A stretch of DNA of 64,000 nucleotides from an uncultured Solirubrobacterales bacterium (GTDB lineage Bacteria > Actinomycetota > Thermoleophilia > Solirubrobacterales > Solirubrobacteraceae), in the NCBI GenBank assembly GCA_963788385.1, contig CAWBGR010000012.1, positions 24,843-88,842 of the forward strand, given 5' to 3'. The notes below the pieces were generated by a model that had not been told where the DNA came from, searched no databases, and saw only the letters and a list, made by a program, of their open reading frames with translations. Positions 36,314-44,202 of the stretch are shown here, piece by piece (the stretch's first letter is position 1; each line of letters opens with the position of its first letter). The position numbers were made by a program, and so were the translations under genes.

Positions 36314-37063
36314 TCACAGCCACACCGTAGCGGCCAGCTCGCCGGCCAGTCGGTCGGCCACAGCAGCGCTTCGGCGCCCGGCACGCACCTGCGCGCGTGC
36401 GAGCAGCGCGAGTGAGCCGCTCAGCAGCACCACGTCCGCTTCGCGCAGCTGCGCGAGCGTCAAAGGCAGCTCGCGTGCATCGATACCCAGGCGCCGCGCG
36501 TGCTCGAGCACGGCGGCCCTGACGACACCCGGCAGAATCGAGCCGTCGAGCGGCGGCGTCGCGAGCACCCCGTCGCGCAGCAGGAACACGTTGGCCCGCG
36601 TCGTTTCGAGCAGTTCGTCCGAGCGGTTGACGAGCAGCGGTCGCACACCCGCCCCCGCGAGCCCCTCGATCTGCTCAAACCAGGATCGGTCGATCAGCTT
36701 GTGGGCCCCGGCGCCGCCCCTGACCCGAACCGCCATGAGCGTGACATTCGCCACCGGCAGCACGGCCGCACGATCCAGGGGCGCGATCTCGATCTCGATC
36801 GCCGGCGGCGAAGCCCCGTGCGGCAGCGCCTTGACGCGCAGTCGCGCGAGCGAGTGCCCTTCGGCGGCCTCCGCGAGCGCTGCGCCGAGTCCCGCTGGCA
36901 GCGCTGCGCCGTAGAGCAGGCGGACGCTCGCACGCAGCCGCGCCAGGTGACGGCTCGCCAGGTGCGGGCGCCCGTCGATCACCAGCAACGTCTCGAACAC
37001 GCCGAGGTCGGCCGCCGGCGCGCACACTGCGGCGAAGTCGAGCGGCGGTTCGGTCACGGCCAT
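36314..37063 (-). CDS. pabC: fold-type IV aminotransferase-like, probable aminodeoxychorismate lyase
   Basis: GVFETLLV, AHKLIDRS (Lys region), ETTRANVFLLRDGVLATPPLDGSILPGVVR. Divergent from pabAB. ATG at 37063; the rest of ORF 36314..38242 is antisense to pabAB. Confidence 0.75.
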   Translation of the reverse strand: MAVTEPPLDFAAVCAPAADLGVFETLLVIDGRPHLASRHLARLRASVRLLYGAALPAGLGAALAEAAEGHSLARLRVKALPHGASPPAIEIEIAPLDRAAVLPVANVTLMAVRVRGGAGAHKLIDRSWFEQIEGLAGAGVRPLLVNRSDELLETTRANVFLLRDGVLATPPLDGSILPGVVRAAVLEHARRLGIDARELPLTLAQLREADVVLLSGSLALLARAQVRAGRRSAAVADRLAGELAATVWL

Positions 37064-37090
37064 GGGCGCAATACTCGCGTAACGGCGATC

Positions 37091-39256
37091 ATGCGCCATG
37101 AGGGCCCGTTGACGACGCTCCTGATCGACAACCACGACTCGAACACCTTCAACCTTTTCCAGCTGCTGGCGCTGGTCGAGGGTAGCGAGCCGGTGGTCGT
37201 GCGCAACGACGAAGCCGAGTGGCTGGCGCTCGACGCCGGGCGCTTCGCCCGCTGCGTCATCTCCGCCGGCCCGGGACGGCCCGACCGCCCGCGCGACTTC
37301 GGCCTCTCGCGCAGCGCGCTGGCACAGACTGACCTTCCGGTGCTCGGCGTCTGTCTCGGGCACCAGGGCCTCGTGCTGGCCCACGGCGGCGAGGTCAGCG
37401 CCGCGCCGCGGCCCATGCACGGGCGGCGCAGCCGTATCTTCCACCACGGCTGCGAGTTGTTCGGGGGGATCCCACAGGGCTTTCTCGCGGTGCGCTATCA
37501 CTCGTTGTCGGTTCGCGAGCCGCTGCCCGCCGCACTCGAGGTCATCGCCCGCACGGCGTCGGGAACGGTGATGGCGGTCCGCCATCGCGAGCACCCGCAT
37601 TGGGGGGTGCAGTTTCACCCGGAGTCGGTGCAGACGGAGTGGGGCGCGCGGCTGCTCGAGAATTTCTGCCGCCTGGGAAGCGGGCGCAGCACAGGAGTGC
37701 GCAACGCACGCGGGCGCAACGGCGGCGGCGCCCCCGCTCCGGCGCCGACGCCCACGCCCACGCCGCGCGCCCGGCGCCCGGCGCAGGGGCTCGAGCTTGT
37801 CGTGCGCTCGGTGCGCCGGCCGCCGCTCGCCGAGGACGCCTTCGTGGAGCTCTACGGGGCGCAGCGCAACGCCTTCTGGCTCGACTCGAGCTGCGAAGTC
37901 CCGCCGCTCGGAGCGTTTTCCTACATGGGCGCGGGCGGCGGACCGCTGTCGGCGCTGATCTGCCACGACGTCGCCGCGCACCGCCTGACGGTCGATCGCG
38001 GCGGACGCCGCGAGACCCATGACACCGCGCTCTTCGACTGGCTTGACCGCGAGCTTGCCGAGCTCTCGGTCGCGGGCCGCGACCTCCCGTTCGAGTTCAT
38101 CGGGGGATTCGTCGGCTACCTTGGCTACGAGCTGAAGGCCGAGTGCGGGGGCGCGCTCGCGCATCGCTCGCTCCTCCCGGATGCTGCGCTGATGTTCGCC
38201 GACCGCGTGATCGCCTACGACCACACCGCGGATGAGGCTCACGCGATCTGCCTGACGACGTCAGCCGACCGCGCGGACGCGGCGAGCTGGGCCGAGCACA
38301 TCGCCGGCCGGCTGCGCCGCGTGCGCAGAGCCCCACCACCGCAGCCGAGCGATCCCGGCGGGCTCACGCATTTTGCGCTGCGCCGCGCCGCCGAGGATTA
38401 CCTCACCGACATCGAGACCTGCCAGCGGCTGCTCGCGGCCGGCGAGAGCTATGAGATCTGCCTCACCAACGAACTCCTCGCGCCGCCATGCACGAACACG
38501 CTCGGCCTGCACCGTGTGCTGCGCCGCGTCAACCCGGCCCCGTTCGCCGCGTTCCTGCGCCTGGGCGGCGTCGAGGTCTCAAGCTCCTCGCCTGAGCGCT
38601 TCCTTGCTCTCGACCGCTCCCGGCGCCTCGAAGCCAGGCCGATCAAGGGCACCGTTGCGCGCGGCGTGACCGTGAGCGAGGACCGCGAGGCGGCAGCCCG
38701 CCTGCGCCGCGCCGGCAAGGACCGCGCCGAGAACCTGATGATCGTCGACGTGCTGCGCAACGACCTCGGCCGGGTTGCCGAGATCGGCTCGGTCGCGGTG
38801 CCCAGTCTGATGGCCGTCGAGAGCTACGAGACCGTGCACCAGCTCGTCTCGACGGTCCATGCGCGGCTGCGCGACGGCGTGACCATCGTCGACGCGCTGC
38901 GTGCGTCCTTCCCGGGCGGCTCGATGACCGGCGCTCCAAAGACACGCACGATGGAGCTGCTCGACCGCATCGAGACCCGTCCGCGCGGCATCTACTCGGG
39001 CGCGATCGGCTACCTGTCGGCAGCCGGCGCCGCCGACCTCAGCATCGCGATCCGCACAATCGTCAACTCCACTCGCGCGATGACGATCGGCGCCGGCGGC
39101 GCGATCACCGTGCAGTCGGACCCCCGCGCCGAGTTGCGCGAGCTGCTGCTGAAGGCACGCGCGCCGCTCGAGGCCGTCGGGCTGGCGCAACACGGCCGCC
39201 GCGACAGCGCGAGGCTCGCCGGCGGCGCTCAGAACTCGACGTTCGCGGCGAGGTAG
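37091..39256 (+). CDS. pabAB: aminodeoxychorismate synthase, fused glutamine amidotransferase (PabA) + chorismate-binding (PabB) components
   Basis: N-terminal LLIDNHDSNTFNLFQ...PVLGVCLGHQG...GVQFHPES. Pro/Thr/Ala linker. C-terminal chorismate-binding motifs (SSSPERFL, ENLMIVDVLRND, FPGGSMTGAPK, GIYSGAIGY). Confidence 0.9.
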   Translation: MRHEGPLTTLLIDNHDSNTFNLFQLLALVEGSEPVVVRNDEAEWLALDAGRFARCVISAGPGRPDRPRDFGLSRSALAQTDLPVLGVCLGHQGLVLAHGGEVSAAPRPMHGRRSRIFHHGCELFGGIPQGFLAVRYHSLSVREPLPAALEVIARTASGTVMAVRHREHPHWGVQFHPESVQTEWGARLLENFCRLGSGRSTGVRNARGRNGGGAPAPAPTPTPTPRARRPAQGLELVVRSVRRPPLAEDAFVELYGAQRNAFWLDSSCEVPPLGAFSYMGAGGGPLSALICHDVAAHRLTVDRGGRRETHDTALFDWLDRELAELSVAGRDLPFEFIGGFVGYLGYELKAECGGALAHRSLLPDAALMFADRVIAYDHTADEAHAICLTTSADRADAASWAEHIAGRLRRVRRAPPPQPSDPGGLTHFALRRAAEDYLTDIETCQRLLAAGESYEICLTNELLAPPCTNTLGLHRVLRRVNPAPFAAFLRLGGVEVSSSSPERFLALDRSRRLEARPIKGTVARGVTVSEDREAAARLRRAGKDRAENLMIVDVLRNDLGRVAEIGSVAVPSLMAVESYETVHQLVSTVHARLRDGVTIVDALRASFPGGSMTGAPKTRTMELLDRIETRPRGIYSGAIGYLSAAGAADLSIAIRTIVNSTRAMTIGAGGAITVQSDPRAELRELLLKARAPLEAVGLAQHGRRDSARLAGGAQNSTFAAR

Positions 39257-42075
39257 GCGAGCGAGGCGCTCCACGAGCTGCCGGAGACCGTGCCCGCAAG
39301 GGTCAGCGGCATGATGAAGTGCAGGCCGGCGAAGGCCGCCGGCGGCGTGGTCGAGTCCTCGGCTGACAGCGTGAGCGTCGTGGAGTGCGAGGCCGTCGGG
39401 GCAGCGGGCGCCGTCGTCCCCGCGCCGGGATAGAGGTCTGACTCGCTCAGCGCCGGACAGCTCCCGGCGCCGGCTGGGAACAGGCAGGTCGTGGTGCCGT
39501 TGTTGGCGGCTTGCACCGAGATCTCGACGCCGCCGTCCTGCGTCGGGGCGCTGGCAGGGTCGCTGAGCGTCCAGTAGGCGGTCGGCGAGAGTGAGAGCAG
39601 TTCGCTCGCCAGCGCAGATTGTGTGGCCTCGCCCTTGATCGTCGTGTCGGTCGCGGCGGAGACCGCTGAGGGAATCACGGCCAGATCGGCGAGCTCGCCG
39701 GTCCACTGCTCGTTGGTCGGCATGTCGGCCCAGGTGCCGGTGTTGTTCATGAACCCGACCGTCCAGTAGCCGGCGTAGTTGAGGTCGCTGATCCCGGAGG
39801 TCTTGCTCGCGACCTGCGCACCATCGATGTACAGGGTCAACGTGGACGGCGTGAACACGGCGACGGCGAGATGCCATGCGTTGTTGTCGTAGGTCGCGGT
39901 GGAGGCCGCCTCGACGCCGGTGCCGCCGCTGATGCCGGCGACGACCTTGCCGCTGTTGTCCATCCAGATCTGGCGGTCGTGCGAGAGCCCGGCGCCGCTC
40001 TGTGCGGCGTCGTAGCCGATGATTCCGCCTCCCGTCGCGTGACTCGGCGCCTTGAACCACGCGACCAGCGAGAAGGTGTCGGGCGCCGAGGCTAGGGGAA
40101 TCGCGCCGGCTGTCTCCATGTAGCCGCTCGCCCCGCTCAGGGCGGCCGCGTAGCTCGACGTGCCCAGCGGGCCGGGGACCCCCAGCGTCACCGTGGCGCC
40201 CACCGCGGTGGCGTCGTCGTTGGCGCTCGAGGAGTCCGGCTCGACTTCGAAGAACGGGAAGGCCTCGCTCTCGGTCGTGCCGCTGTCGGTGAGTGGCCAG
40301 TAGAAGCCGGGAGCATCGGTGAGCATCTGCGCCTCGTAGGCGCCGAGGCTTGTCTCGCCGTGCAGGGTCGTGATCTGCGCGGCGCTCAGAGCCGAGGCGA
40401 AGTAGGCGAAATGCGCGAGCTCACCGGTCCAGTAGTCGTCAGTCGGCTGGTCGGTCCAGTTTGTCGCTGCGTTGAGGACGCCGATCTGCCAGTAGCCGCC
40501 GCTCGCCCCGCCCGAGGTGGCGCTGGCGTTGGTGACTGCCGTGCCCGCGTCGACGTAGACCTTCAGCCCGGACGAGTTCACCGTGGCAACGAGCAGATGC
40601 CACTGCCCGTTGTTGTAGGCGCTCGTCGAGGTCGCCTGGTAGTAGGACGAGGACTTGTGCACGCCGACGACGATCTTGCCGCTGTTATCCATCCACGCGG
40701 CGGGGTCGTTCCCGGTACCCGAGCCCGAACGGGCACTGTCGAAGGTGAGGATGCCGCCACCGCCGCTCCAGCCGCTGGGCACCCGGAACCACACCGCGAT
40801 CGTGAACGCAGCCGGGAGTGCGGCGTTGGCGGTCGCGGTCTCGGCCCAGCTCGTCCCGTCGGTGGCGCCGTCGAAGTACATCGCGCCGTCGTTCGCGAAC
40901 GGGCCAGCGTCGGATGGCGTCACGCCGCCCATCGGCGTCCCGAGATTGTTGTTGCCGGTGAGGTCGGGCAGCGACGCCACGACGGGCAGGCCGGTCGCCG
41001 TCGTCGAGGCCGATTGCAGGGGCCAGAACTCGCTCGGCGAGTCGGCGAGGACACGGGTTTCGAAGCTCGACTCGGTGCCCGATCCGCTGTTGTAGAGCGT
41101 CGTCACCTGCGCTGCCGACAGCGCCGACGGGAACACGGCGACCTCGGCGAGTGAGCCGGCGAGGTAGTAGCTCAAGGGCGTCGGGACGTAGACCGCGCCA
41201 TAGGCCCAGCCGACCGTCCAATAGCCGTCGTAGGCCTGAGCTGAGGTGGCGCTCGCGTTGGTGGCGACGGAGGTGCCGTTGACGTAGATCTTCAGCCCCG
41301 CGGTGGAGCTGAACGACGCCACGACGTAGTACCAGCTGCCGGTGTTGTAGGTGGCCGACGTGGTGGCAACCTGAGTGGTGCCGCCTGTGTACTCGCCGGC
41401 GGCGATGTGCCCTGAGTTGTCCATCCACAGGTTGGGCGCCCACCCCGCGGGCGTCCCGCTCTGGGAGGTCGCGAAGCCGACAATCTCGCCGCCGCTCGAG
41501 TAGCCCGAGGCGACATCGACCCAGGCTGCCAGCGTGAAGTTGCCGCCCGACGGGCTCGCGACCTTCTGTTGCGTCTCGAGCATGCCGGTCGACCCGTTGA
41601 AGCTAGCGGCGGCGGCGCTCAGCGGGCCGCTCGCGCCGAACGTAACGCCCCCGAGCGGGAACGCGTCGTCACCGTCGCCGGACGCATCGCTGGCGACCTC
41701 CAGCCCGCCCGTCGCGCTGGTGAGCGTCGCGGAACTCGGCGCTGAGGTGCCGGCGTTCGCGAATGTGCTCGTCAGTGAGCTCGGCAAGAGGCTCGAGAGC
41801 TCCGAGCCCGGCCATGGGTTCCCGGTGCAACTGGTGCTGTCGCTGCTGAACGGCGCGCTCGTCGCGCCGGTCGAGGTGCACGTGCCGCCGCCGGCCGGCG
41901 CGTTCGTCAGCACAACCGAGGCCGCGGTCGTCGTTCCGCTCCCCGTGATCGTCGCCGTGAACGCGGCCAGCGTCGGCGTCGTGGCCGCCACCAGCGCCAC
42001 GGAGAGGCTGAACAGGATCAACCGCCGGACCAGGCGCCCACTGGGCCGGCGCAGCTTGGCGGCGCGGCCGCTCAC
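39229..42075 (-). CDS. 948-aa secreted protein: SipW-type signal peptide, TasA-like N- and C-terminal segments, three internal LamG/concanavalin-A-like lectin modules
   Basis: GTG start. N-terminus RRLILFSLSVALVAATTPTLAAFTATITGSG. Three repeats carry W(V/F)...GGG(I)...WMDNSG(H/K)(I/V).(A/V)G...Y(N/D).(G/N).W(Y/H)...L(K/T).Y(V/I).G. The termini resemble gene 43507..44202. Confidence 0.8.
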   Translation of the reverse strand: MSGRAAKLRRPSGRLVRRLILFSLSVALVAATTPTLAAFTATITGSGTTTAASVVLTNAPAGGGTCTSTGATSAPFSSDSTSCTGNPWPGSELSSLLPSSLTSTFANAGTSAPSSATLTSATGGLEVASDASGDGDDAFPLGGVTFGASGPLSAAAASFNGSTGMLETQQKVASPSGGNFTLAAWVDVASGYSSGGEIVGFATSQSGTPAGWAPNLWMDNSGHIAAGEYTGGTTQVATTSATYNTGSWYYVVASFSSTAGLKIYVNGTSVATNASATSAQAYDGYWTVGWAYGAVYVPTPLSYYLAGSLAEVAVFPSALSAAQVTTLYNSGSGTESSFETRVLADSPSEFWPLQSASTTATGLPVVASLPDLTGNNNLGTPMGGVTPSDAGPFANDGAMYFDGATDGTSWAETATANAALPAAFTIAVWFRVPSGWSGGGGILTFDSARSGSGTGNDPAAWMDNSGKIVVGVHKSSSYYQATSTSAYNNGQWHLLVATVNSSGLKVYVDAGTAVTNASATSGGASGGYWQIGVLNAATNWTDQPTDDYWTGELAHFAYFASALSAAQITTLHGETSLGAYEAQMLTDAPGFYWPLTDSGTTESEAFPFFEVEPDSSSANDDATAVGATVTLGVPGPLGTSSYAAALSGASGYMETAGAIPLASAPDTFSLVAWFKAPSHATGGGIIGYDAAQSGAGLSHDRQIWMDNSGKVVAGISGGTGVEAASTATYDNNAWHLAVAVFTPSTLTLYIDGAQVASKTSGISDLNYAGYWTVGFMNNTGTWADMPTNEQWTGELADLAVIPSAVSAATDTTIKGEATQSALASELLSLSPTAYWTLSDPASAPTQDGGVEISVQAANNGTTTCLFPAGAGSCPALSESDLYPGAGTTAPAAPTASHSTTLTLSAEDSTTPPAAFAGLHFIMPLTLAGTVSGSSWSASLAYLAANVEF

Positions 42076-42206: not shown

Positions 42207-43484
42207 TCACCCGCGGGCTTCGGCTGCTTCGCGGCCGACGCTGAGCCTGGCGAGCACGCGGCCGCGAGGGAGGCGACGGCGGGCTCGGTCTGGCGCGAGC
42301 GTCTCGGTACCTTCGCGCAGCGCCAGCATGCCAACCGCGAGCGGAGACAGCACGATCGCCGCAACCAGCACCCAGGCCCAGATTGGCAGGATCGCGTGCG
42401 CTTGTAGCGTCGAGTTCGAGCGGCTTGCCAGGCGCGCCGCGATGATGCCGGCGTGACCGGGCTCGATCACCGTGTGCGTGCCGGTGATGCTGATACGCAA
42501 AGGCAGAACGCCGCCGTTGACGAGCCGCGCAAGGAAGTTCGCACCCGAATGGGAGGAGGCGGCCATCGTCACGCCGCCATGGTGCGCTCCACGCGCGGCG
42601 GCGCTGTGCCCACCGGCAGCGGCGGTTGTGACCCGTCCGGCGCTCGCGACCGCAACCCGCACGAACGGCCGGACCATGTACAGCGGCAATGCGAAGGCGC
42701 CGCCGACCGTCACCGAGCGCATCGCCGGGCGCAGAAAGCGGGGCAGTATGAGGCTGAGGATCGCCCCCGCCGCAAGTACCGCGAGAGCCCACGGAAGCCC
42801 GTTCACCACCCAGCCGAGGTCGGGGATGATGGCGACCGGCACACCGATGATCGAGGTGCGCGTGAGCTCCCAGCCGTCGTCTGAGGTGTTCAGGTCGCCG
42901 CGGGTGCGAAACGCGCCGCCGGGGAGAAGCTGTGCGACCCGGTGCATGTAGACCGCGCCGGTGCTCGGAACGTGGAAGGCGACGACCATCCCGCGCCGCA
43001 GCGGGGCGGCCCCGATCGGCCGGGTCAGCACGAGGCTCCCAGCCGGCGCCGTCGTTCCCATCGAGGGGGTCTGCATCACGAGCATGTCGCCGTGGGCGAT
43101 GAAGATCCACCCGCCGAGGGCGAGCGCGGCCAGCGCACCCAGAGCAACCGGCAGCCAGCGAGCCAGTCGCCGCGCACGATATGAGCGCCGCGCCGGCGAG
43201 CCTGGCGGCCGCCTCGAAGCTGCGGTTCGAACCTGGTCGCCTGCTGCGCTCGCGGCCGGCGCGAGTTGCCGGATTGCCGCGGCAGCGGGCTGCGCCGTGC
43301 GCTCCGGCGCGCGTGCGCCGGCCGGCTGAGCAGCGCCGCCGCGGCGGCGCCCGAAGATCCACGCGCCGAGCGCGGCGAGGATCAGCGTGCCGGCGACGGC
43401 CGCCAGCCGGCCGCGAAGCGGCCGAGGCACGCGGTTTGCCGGAGCAACTGCCCCGTCCGCGCGCCTCGGCTTGACCTGCGCCAT
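42207..43484 (-). CDS. signal peptidase I, S26B (SipW / Sec11 / archaeal-type, Ser-His) with N-terminal extra TM plus linker and ~170-aa C-terminal extension
   Basis: Boxes QTPSMGTTAPAGSLVL (Ser), VYMHRVAQ (His in place of Lys), FRTRGDLNTSDDGW (GDNN..D box). ATG at 43484 preceded by AAGAGG. TM helices flank the catalytic domain. Confidence 0.75.
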   Translation of the reverse strand: MAQVKPRRADGAVAPANRVPRPLRGRLAAVAGTLILAALGAWIFGRRRGGAAQPAGARAPERTAQPAAAAIRQLAPAASAAGDQVRTAASRRPPGSPARRSYRARRLARWLPVALGALAALALGGWIFIAHGDMLVMQTPSMGTTAPAGSLVLTRPIGAAPLRRGMVVAFHVPSTGAVYMHRVAQLLPGGAFRTRGDLNTSDDGWELTRTSIIGVPVAIIPDLGWVVNGLPWALAVLAAGAILSLILPRFLRPAMRSVTVGGAFALPLYMVRPFVRVAVASAGRVTTAAAGGHSAAARGAHHGGVTMAASSHSGANFLARLVNGGVLPLRISITGTHTVIEPGHAGIIAARLASRSNSTLQAHAILPIWAWVLVAAIVLSPLAVGMLALREGTETLAPDRARRRLPRGRVLARLSVGREAAEARG

Positions 43485-43506: not shown

Positions 43507-44202
43507 TTACTGGTTGAGCGTGAAGGTGAATCCCTGGGTGGCCTGGAGTCCCATGTCGTTGTTCGTCGCTGAGGTGTCGAGCTTGGTGCTCACGACGACG
43601 GTGTCGGAGGCGCCGGCGGCCAGGCCGGAGCCGATCGTGGCGGCACTCGTCAGCGTCGCGAGCGTGTAGGTGCTCGACAGCGCCGGGCAGGCACTGGCCT
43701 GCGACGGGTAGTAACAGACCGAGGCGCCGTTGCCGATCGTGATGTCGACCTTGCCGCAGAACCCGGCGGTGTCACTTCCGTAGAAGGTGCCGCTGCCGGC
43801 CGCCGTGCACGTCGCCGGTGTCACGGTGAAGGTCCCAGCGTTTGTCGTGCCGACATTGGTGAATGTCAGCGTCTGCGTGTTCGCCGTGCCGCCCGGGACC
43901 TGGCCGGTCGGTGCGCCGAAGGTGTCGATCGTGGTGCAGCTGTAGCTGTTGCCGCCCAGGATGGCGCCGCTCGCCACGCCGGCGGAATAACAGGTGTTGG
44001 AGCTGCCGACCTCCTTGAGCACGATCGTGCCGGCGGTCAGCGTGCCGTTCTGGGTGATCGTGGCGTTGAACGCACCGAGTGCGCCCATCGTCGTCAGGGC
44101 CAGAGCCGCGGCAACCGCTGCCCCGACCGCGGCGGTCGTCACAGCCTGCTGTTTTGACCGTGGCCGGGGATGCTGGTGATGTCGAATCTTGATCAAGCGC
44201 AT
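43507..44202 (-). CDS. TasA/camelysin-like secreted protein with SipW-type signal peptide (231 aa)
   Basis: ATG at 44202 (GAGGA upstream). Basic n-region, h-region AAVGAAVAAALALTTMGALG, then AFNATITQNGTLTAGTIVL, as in SipW substrates. Beta-rich Thr/Gly/Ser mature part with paired Cys. Confidence 0.7.
   Translation of the reverse strand: MRLIKIRHHQHPRPRSKQQAVTTAAVGAAVAAALALTTMGALGAFNATITQNGTLTAGTIVLKEVGSSNTCYSAGVASGAILGGNSYSCTTIDTFGAPTGQVPGGTANTQTLTFTNVGTTNAGTFTVTPATCTAAGSGTFYGSDTAGFCGKVDITIGNGASVCYYPSQASACPALSSTYTLATLTSAATIGSGLAAGASDTVVVSTKLDTSATNNDMGLQATQGFTFTLNQ

Follow-up and report, generated by a model that had tools for sequence, protein, structure and literature searches.

A three-gene operon on the minus strand of an uncultured Solirubrobacterales bacterium (Solirubrobacteraceae) encodes a small protein of 231 amino acids (aa), a predicted signal peptidase of 425 aa and a large protein of 948 aa, and the large protein carries both halves of the small one, separated by an array of three LamG modules. 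The operon was studied in a window of 64,000 nucleotides (nt) of contig CAWBGR010000012.1 (assembly GCA_963788385.1), the window being the whole stretch of DNA that was analysed, and the three adjoining genes, as read from their open reading frame (ORF) translations, are listed with their parts in Table 1. By homology the large protein is best described as a paralogue of the small protein with the LamG array nested in one loop. These uncultured soil bacteria probably use the gene set to make a surface fibre not described before, a reading that builds on analogy with TasA and with the haloarchaeal Tat-fimbriae (tafi).

Split homology of the large and small proteins

A first-pass annotation of this DNA had suggested that the large protein is the domain of its neighbour split open by three LamG modules. 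Both ORFs, on the minus strand, are present as described, and BLASTP, shuffled controls and hhalign agree that both ends of the large protein are homologous to the 231-aa protein. BLASTP with compositional adjustment aligned residues 36-122 of the large protein with residues 42-131 of the small one (37% identity, E 5e-5) and residues 848-922 with residues 150-229 (33% identity, E 1e-4), and the two matches are collinear. In Smith-Waterman comparisons with the small protein the N-terminal end scored 121 and the C-terminal end 87, as against 30-57 for 110-aa windows taken from the LamG middle. Relative to 1000 composition-preserving shuffles these scores correspond to z = 7.4 and z = 5.9, and not one shuffle reached the score of either end. 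The cross-controls, in which the N-terminal end was compared with the C-terminal half of the small protein and the C-terminal end with its N-terminal half, stayed at chance level.

The same picture was obtained by hhalign with profiles built from 27 relatives of the large protein and 58 of the small one. The N-terminal end matched the small family over small-protein residues 39-132 (98.2%, E 3e-14), the C-terminal end over residues 147-228 (96.4%, E 1e-9) and the two ends joined over residues 39-228 (99.3%, E 9e-21), while the LamG middle gave 0.04% (E 0.9) and covered no residue of the small protein. A homologue search with the C-terminal 124 aa alone returned three fragments only.

Both proteins are rich in Thr, Ser, Gly and Ala, and AlphaFold2 is unsure of the ends of the large one, which would be in line with a chance resemblance of composition, or with a 948-aa ORF created by an assembly or annotation artefact that joins genes. 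The shuffles, the cross-controls and the hhalign statistics argue that the similarity of the ends is not an effect of low-complexity composition. An artefact of joining is contradicted by the occurrence of an identical 948-aa protein in a JGI metagenome, by more than 25 orthologues of the same architecture, and by the same junctions in 33 split proteins from independent assemblies. On the combined weight of shuffles, hhalign, orthologues and related loci this explanation was ruled out, and we give it next to no probability.

Insertion site and shared ends

The alignment statistics, more than 30 related loci and the paired cysteines that flank the insert support the earlier proposal that the neighbour's domain is interrupted by the LamG array. 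According to the hhalign boundaries, the homology breaks off between small-protein residues 132 and 147, inside the loop between the invariant Cys132 and Cys149. In the AlphaFold2 model of the small protein this site is flanked by confident strands (residues 108-136 and 152-230). The two flanking cysteines are both kept in 26 of the 33 split LamG proteins and both lost in the remaining 7, and a single one is never kept alone; three mixed cases in the raw cysteine table turned out, on reading of the printed flanks, to be artefacts of the 22-residue search window. The seven proteins that lack both cysteines form a Solirubrobacterales clade with three or four modules, to which the window protein belongs. 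The cysteine-keeping relatives have ...S-C-G-V-A-E-L-A-D before the first module and Y-W-P-L-Q-D-S-A-S-N-I-C-G-T-T-E-V-T-L-Q after the last. Such a both-or-neither pattern fits a disulfide that closes the base of the insert, so that in the cysteine-keeping relatives a predicted disulfide would link both ends of the insert and place the two halves of the domain side by side. The small protein's remaining two cysteine pairs recur in the large one, as Cys66/Cys83 and Cys864/Cys873.

The loop appears to be permissive, since a 308-aa relative (P0170) has an unrelated stretch of 75 aa inserted between the cysteines that correspond to Cys132 and Cys149. Three members of the small family, of about 290-320 aa (P0170, P0253 and P0254), contain short inserts of 65-110 aa that are not LamG, and no Pfam family matched any of the three. 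For the large protein, modelled from a 27-sequence alignment, the predicted local distance difference test (pLDDT) of AlphaFold2 was below 50 for residues 22-125 and 50-70 for residues 850-947. With confidence this low, the proposed folding of the two ends into one domain is argued from sequence and not from the model.

The cleavage region and the segment that follows it are common to both proteins (LAAFTATITGSGTTTAASVVLT in the large protein, LGAFNATITQNGTLTAGTIVLK in the small one). Within loci the block x-T-x-G-T-I-V-L is 64% identical between large and small proteins, and most other blocks are 10-40% identical. In the small protein a signal peptide (residues 1-~44) is followed by a conserved A-F-N-A-T-I-T...G-T-I-V-L start. 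Ahead of its hydrophobic stretch, the large protein's signal peptide carries a conserved Arg-Arg (VRRLILF, with the family consensus R-x-x-R-R), a feature missing from the small protein; this may represent a twin-arginine export signal of the kind used by tafi, or simply an Arg-rich n-region of a Sec signal.

The split LamG proteins also share a C-terminal extension of ~18-22 residues (...S-x-x-W-S-A-x-I/L-x-Y-x-x-A-x-V-E-L), which the small proteins lack; its conservation was judged on the aligned split proteins, except one apparently frameshifted sequence. AlphaFold2 models the extension as a beta strand (residues 937-947 of the large protein). The motif [FW]-[STN]-A-x-[ILV]-x occurs in 21 of 32 tails and resembles F-[NST]-A-x-I-T. 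When scored with a donor-strand matrix, the tail came first in 4 of 32 proteins and among the top three in 9, and in the window protein it ranked 38th of 857 windows. The modelled strand might fill the acceptor groove of its own subunit and in this way restrict the large protein to the end of a fibre.

The LamG array

The middle of the large protein consists of three modules of LamG fold. The blocks by which three LamG/ConA-like repeats had been recognised at first pass are readable in the translation: FTLAAWV, FTIAVWF and FSLVAWF for the FxxAxW block, WMDNSGH/K in all three, YNTGSWY, YNNGQWH and YDNNAWH, and LKIYVNG, LKVYVDA and LTLYIDG. Pfam Laminin_G_3 (PF13385) matched three stretches with E 2.7e-47 and 161 bits against a cut-off of 27.6. 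AlphaFold2 gave pLDDT values of mostly 70-94 for the modules, with two helices after each and with module 1 confident at residues 138-345, and Foldseek matched the region to laminin LG1-3 and neurexin LNS arrays (E 8e-18). A strand of the form [FY]-W-P-L-x-[DS] precedes modules 2 and 3, and module 1 starts with G-L-E-V-A-S-D instead. An extra copy of the strand, YWTLSD (residues 830-845, ~39541-39585), near-invariant in relatives, trails the last module before the C-terminal half. This placement of the strand puts the inserted array out of register with the usual LamG_3 unit.

The concanavalin A-like superfamily includes glucanases, and the Pfam clan is named "lectin/glucanases", so the inserted modules might be catalytic (glycoside hydrolase- or lyase-like) and the large protein an enzyme that is exposed on the small one or released along with it. 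We regard this as very unlikely. The top family matches are the non-catalytic Laminin_G_3 and LamG, no glycoside-hydrolase family was matched, and the structural matches are likewise non-catalytic (laminin LG, neurexin LNS, pentraxins and the receptor-binding domains of clostridial neurotoxins). The tandem variation between one and four modules is, moreover, typical of binding modules.

A search for relatives with different numbers of inserts had been suggested at first pass, and relatives with one, two, three and four modules were found. One module occurs in two proteins of ~480 aa (L030 and L043), two in most Acidimicrobiales and in a 711-aa protein (P0028), three in Solirubrobacterales and in L034, and four in P0007 (1180 aa) and P0010. 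In the 4-module protein, modules 1 and 2 share 68% identity, and either of them shares 62% with module 1 of the window protein. Identity reaches 85% between modules 2 and 3 of L034, as against only 37-40% among the three modules of the window protein. These identities point to independent changes of LamG copy number across lineages, by duplication.

The signal peptidase and conservation of the gene set

The 425-aa protein is, from family profiles and invariant residues, identified as a SEC11/SipW-type (archaeal/endoplasmic reticulum-type) signal peptidase I. Taken alone, the window peptidase matches TIGR02228 with E 5e-6 and 27 bits, below the cut-off of 51.85. The same model is matched by 36 of 36 peptidase relatives and the SipW model by 22 of them, and a family profile of the 36 relatives matches human SEC11A/C (E 2e-10). 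The Ser (in P-S-M), the His (in H-R) and one Asp are invariant across the 36 sequences. Hydropathy indicates three to four hydrophobic segments, and there is a conserved extra C-terminal region.

The conserved stretch after the catalytic core (residues ~310-400) recalls the unexplained C-terminal domain of TafD, the signal peptidase of tafi, which has such an extra domain (PMC11821415). Pfam, including DUF5305, gave no match for this region of the window peptidase. A subunit-like domain at this position, as reported for TafD, was considered and found no support (hhalign against the small family, E 0.5). The peptidase ORF starts with ~90 poorly conserved, Arg/Ala-rich residues that include a hydrophobic stretch at residues 25-46, and its true start may be further downstream, since the relatives align only from residue ~45-95.

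In the window the peptidase gene lies between the small and large genes, and its association with them is conserved across loci. A scan of one genome per species yielded 53 loci that encode the small protein, and in most of these the split LamG gene adjoins the small gene and a SEC11/SipW-type peptidase gene lies within a few kilobases (kb). The 53 loci come from Solirubrobacterales, Acidimicrobiales, Frankiaceae, Jatrophihabitans and Dormibacteria. In Acidimicrobiales the gene order is small, LamG, peptidase; in Solirubrobacterales the small gene is followed by the peptidase gene, in some cases by a second small gene, and then by LamG. The conservation of the trio across orders and rearrangements suggests that the three proteins work together. 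A few loci hold a small gene alone, in genomes that also hold a full locus; small genes that have neither LamG nor peptidase genes within 8 kb were found at L011, L014, L019, L025 and L039.

Two paralogous small genes, in tandem or flanking the peptidase gene, were observed at seven loci (L001, L004, L005, L007, L008, L011 and L042), and the second paralogue may serve as a TafE-like adapter subunit. A single small gene is present in the window and in its closest relative (L003), and no second copy was found elsewhere in the window. One protein from another assembly (P0031, 710 aa) combines the signal-peptidase domains PF00717 and PF10502 with two LamG modules, which would make it a fusion of peptidase and LamG. 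On L009 (CAJCHW010000088.1), a contig recorded as "Chlamydiae bacterium", a small gene of 62% identity is accompanied by LamG and peptidase genes of the kind usual in Solirubrobacterales; this contig is probably mis-binned.

The locus and its surroundings

The positions of the three genes and their parts are collected in Table 1.

Table 1. Features of the three-gene operon, in coordinates of the 64,000-nt window (HMM, hidden Markov model)
Feature	Coordinates	Strand	Basis
Small 231-aa protein, putative major subunit	43507..44202	minus	Family without Pfam model
Small-protein loop between invariant Cys132 and Cys149, LamG insertion site	43756..43809	minus	Invariant columns, hhalign boundaries
425-aa predicted SEC11/SipW-type signal peptidase I	42207..43484	minus	TIGR02228, family profile, invariant residues
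Peptidase catalytic core, residues ~125-225, TPSMG...YMHRV...RGDLN...D	42810..43112	minus	Family profiles, invariant residues
948-aa split-domain LamG protein	39229..42075	minus	ORF, Pfam, BLASTP, shuffles, hhalign, AlphaFold2
Signal peptide of large protein, residues 1-~37, ends ...TPTLAA/FTATIT, n-region with VRRLILF	41965..42075	minus	Hydropathy, alignment to small protein
N-terminal half of small-like domain, residues ~36-125, with conserved Cys66 and Cys83	41701..41970	minus	BLASTP, shuffles, hhalign
LamG module 1 and two-helix linker, residues ~126-362	40990..41700	minus	Pfam Laminin_G_3, AlphaFold2, module HMM
LamG module 2 and linker, residues ~366-604	40264..40980	minus	Pfam Laminin_G_3, AlphaFold2, module HMM
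LamG module 3, linker and trailing YWTLSD strand, residues ~610-845	39541..40248	minus	Pfam, AlphaFold2, HMM, junctions
C-terminal half of small-like domain, residues ~846-926, with C864...C873-P-A-L motif	39298..39540	minus	BLASTP, shuffles, hhalign
C-terminal extension, ~22 residues (GTVSGSSWSASLAYLAANVEF)	39232..39297	minus	Tail alignment, AlphaFold2 strand 937-947

The surrounding DNA has a G+C content of ~70%, and scans of the region 38-46 kb for promoters, terminators and Rfam families gave no match. As far as can be read from translations, the genes that flank the trio look ordinary. Downstream, on the plus strand, a convergent ORF of 918 aa (36500-39256) resembles a fused PabA/PabB aminodeoxychorismate synthase, and its 3' end overlaps that of the large gene by 28 bases (39229-39256). 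Upstream of the trio lie ORFs for a major facilitator superfamily-type transporter and a DEAD-box helicase, as read by eye. The nearest relatives are found in Solirubrobacteraceae genomes assembled from peat metagenomes, and the small protein is 98% identical in SPRUCE 532.

The TasA label and the case for a fibre

The small protein belongs to a family of 667 clusters (50% identity, E<=1e-3), nearly all of 200-250 aa. Among the 113 family matches listed, none has a Pfam domain and the only name given is "hypothetical protein"; searches of the family against Pfam and NCBIfam produced weak, unrelated sub-threshold matches only. AlphaFold2 models residues 100-231 confidently as beta-rich, and residues 33-97 with low confidence.

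The first-pass annotation had called the domain TasA-like. As a statement of family membership this does not hold, there being no significant sequence-family match and a weak Foldseek match to the TasA fibre. Membership of the small protein in TasA, TafA or the solved fibre subunits was rejected on empty Pfam, NCBIfam and PDB searches. With the model of the small protein, Foldseek returned no match at E<=0.001; TasA 5of2 ranked 27th (E 0.21) and type 1 pilus rods came further down the list, the N-terminal third of the model being below pLDDT 50. The TasA fibre entry 8aur and the type 1 pilus rods can be taken as weak fold hints for a fibre subunit. An hhalign comparison of the small family with an approximate TasA sequence gave P 0.008 and a probability of 4.8%, and the alignment covers only the signal peptide, the A-F-N start, a T-F-x-S-G-T-L-x-L block and a P-G...T..F.N.G block. 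The A-F-N...T-L-T-A-G-T-I-V-L of the small protein does resemble the A-F-N...T-F-A-S-G-T-L-D-L of this TasA sequence as a motif. The label, which rests on context and a short motif, is therefore one of analogy and not a family assignment.

What supports a system of TasA/tafi type is the SEC11/SipW-type peptidase of the operon together with the A-F-x-A-x-I ... G-T-x-x-L N-terminus shared by the small and large proteins. Most likely the operon is an undescribed Actinomycetota counterpart of TasA or of the haloarchaeal Tat-fimbriae. We lean, if by a modest balance of probability, towards a small protein that would be a fibre subunit cut by the peptidase of the operon, and a large protein that would be a minor adhesin subunit displaying the LamG modules. 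On this proposal both proteins would be exported and cut by the peptidase at the shared ...A/F-x-A-x-I-T site. The small protein would then polymerise into an extracellular fibre, its freed N-terminal strand being donated to a neighbouring subunit as in TasA and Tat-fimbriae. The large protein, which retains the N-terminal segment and the core of the small one, could for that reason be built into the fibre as a rare subunit, most likely at the fibre end, and its outward-facing LamG array would act as an adhesin towards glycans or other surfaces. The precedents of the TasA and tafi operons, and the shared cleavage region and N-terminal segment, point in this direction; the minor or tip-subunit role we infer by analogy with TafC, the tip protein of tafi.

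Several observations weigh against a fibre of this kind. No Pfam or NCBIfam match to TasA, Peptidase_M73 or SipW-cognate families was obtained with 58 small-family members and the ends of the large protein at E values up to 1-10, and profile searches gave no sequence-family link to TafA or any solved fibre subunit and no sequence match in the PDB. The match to the TasA fibre 8aur_A, third in the Foldseek search, fell short of significance, with E 0.028, a probability of 0.82, a TM-score of 0.35 and a root-mean-square deviation of 15.5. In both proteins the first ~60 residues of the mature chain are modelled by AlphaFold2 with low confidence, and the C-terminal half of the large one reaches values of only 50-70. 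No TafF- or TapA-type anchor protein and no sortase signal was seen in the three-gene operon. All relatives, finally, come from records labelled metagenome-assembled genomes or uncultured isolates.

Some of these points would also suit two proteins that do not polymerise at all, being separate secreted or wall-associated proteins, one a plain beta-sandwich and the other the same module with lectin domains, which share a specialised peptidase only because of an unusual signal peptide. Polymerisation is argued from analogy and not from direct evidence, and the small family has no recognised fibre-family signature. Weak matches to HYDIN/VesB-like immunoglobulin domains in 20 of 58 small members (best E 0.006) fit a generic beta-sandwich, and the orphan small genes mentioned above are readily accommodated. 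We nevertheless find this alternative rather doubtful. Across distant orders a plain paralogue is strictly paired with a decorated one that has the same N-terminal segment, as would be expected of major and minor subunits. The BsaA operon, which pairs a SipW/SEC11-type peptidase with small secreted paralogues, makes fibres or matrix polymers. The characterised TasA and tafi operons, with the same combination of peptidase and small paralogues, likewise make such polymers (PMC9674648, PMC11821415, PMC11580942).

If a fibre is made, the large protein might instead be a TapA-like nucleator and cell-proximal anchor, which would provide the first donor strand and bind wall polysaccharide through its LamG modules. 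TapA nucleates TasA fibres via its N-terminal strand, and a role as their anchor to the wall has been proposed (PMC9674648); the operon holds no other candidate for an anchor, and the conserved extra C-terminal strand of the large protein could be accounted for in such a role. The C-terminus, however, has no wall-binding motif, sortase signal or membrane segment, and the sequence itself does not separate a nucleator from a tip role. Since the first strand donor ends up at one fibre end in TasA-type growth, nucleator and tip can be one and the same molecule. As a separate explanation the anchor is in our view unlikely, and the adhesin subunit is kept as the preferred role of the large protein.

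A more specific form of the fibre proposal, which we put forward tentatively as a possibility and not as the probable case, is an unrecognised strand-donating fibre family of Actinomycetota and Dormibacteria with its own SEC11-type peptidase. Here the adhesin would carry its array of one to four LamG modules in a disulfide-stapled loop, would be capped by its own C-terminal strand, and would be confined to the fibre end.

Comparison with known systems

The closest parallel in organisation is tafi of Haloarcula hispanica, with TafA as the major subunit, TafC as the tip protein and TafD as the signal peptidase (PMC11821415, PMC12337348). Like tafi, the present operon combines a small putative major subunit, a larger paralogue of subunit-like and LamG parts, and a dedicated SEC11-type peptidase that has an additional C-terminal region. 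Phe30 is the first residue of mature TafA (PMC11821415), and the subunit here is likewise predicted, from sequence alone, to start at a Phe after the cleavage site. TafC consists of a TafA-like domain and a LamG domain, is present at ~1 per 100 TafA and was modelled at the tip (PMC11821415). In TafC, however, LamG follows the subunit-like domain, whereas one to four modules are nested in a loop of the subunit here. The large protein reaches 29.9 bits (E 3e-7) with the TafC model NF052521, the cut-off of which is 410, and the match is to the LamG part only (residues 233-333 to profile positions 269-368 of 373). In further contrast to tafi, the window holds no counterparts of TafB, TafE, TafF or TafG, a twin-arginine motif is missing from the small protein, and the hosts are Actinomycetota and not Halobacteria.

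The TapA-SipW-TasA operon for the biofilm fibres of Bacillus subtilis (PMC9674648, PMC10151520) is similar in having three genes, a SipW-class peptidase, a secreted major protein of beta-sandwich type and an accessory protein that shares its N-terminus. In TasA the donor strand is formed by residues 28-38, which are freed by SipW cleavage and insert into the next subunit (PMC9674648). The motif A-F-N ... T-F/L-x-S/A-G-T-L/I-x-L is collinear with TasA residues 28-46, as far as the approximate TasA sequence allows, and the N-terminal part of the small monomer model is poorly defined, as would be expected for a region that rearranges. Unlike TasA, the small protein has no Peptidase_M73 or SipW-cognate match, and the low hhalign probability given above, obtained with the approximate sequence, sets it apart as well. 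TapA, for its part, lacks LamG and is not built as a TasA core carrying an insert, and the present proteins have conserved cysteine pairs of the disulfide type. In its organisation the system would work like tafi or TasA, yet sequence searches place it outside both.

Tip adhesins in which a binding module is grafted onto a pilin are found among the sortase-pilus tip pilins (RrgA) and the modular type IV pilins of Streptococcus sanguinis, which include one with a lectin module of ConA/LamG-like type. In RrgA-type tip pilins one domain is nested in a loop of another. The large protein would be like these in that the scaffold keeps its polymerisation surfaces and receives a binding module, attached to it or placed within it; the sortase and type IV machineries and the scaffold folds are unrelated, and there is no sequence relationship. 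Full-text literature searches for TasA/SipW in Actinobacteria, for LamG with peptidase or pilin, and for the TIGRFAM names returned no description of this actinobacterial module.

Implications

Since the small family has no Pfam model and, among the matches listed, no informative annotation, a family definition and an annotation rule could be written for it, and the three genes are compact enough for heterologous expression. If the fibre proposal is true, fibres of TasA/tafi type with SEC11/SipW-type processing would not be confined to Firmicutes and archaea, and would also occur in Dormibacteria and in abundant uncultured Actinomycetota of soil and peat, such as Solirubrobacterales and Acidimicrobiales. 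The large protein would then illustrate a route to an adhesin subunit in which binding modules are inserted in a permissive, disulfide-closed loop and their number is tuned by tandem duplication.

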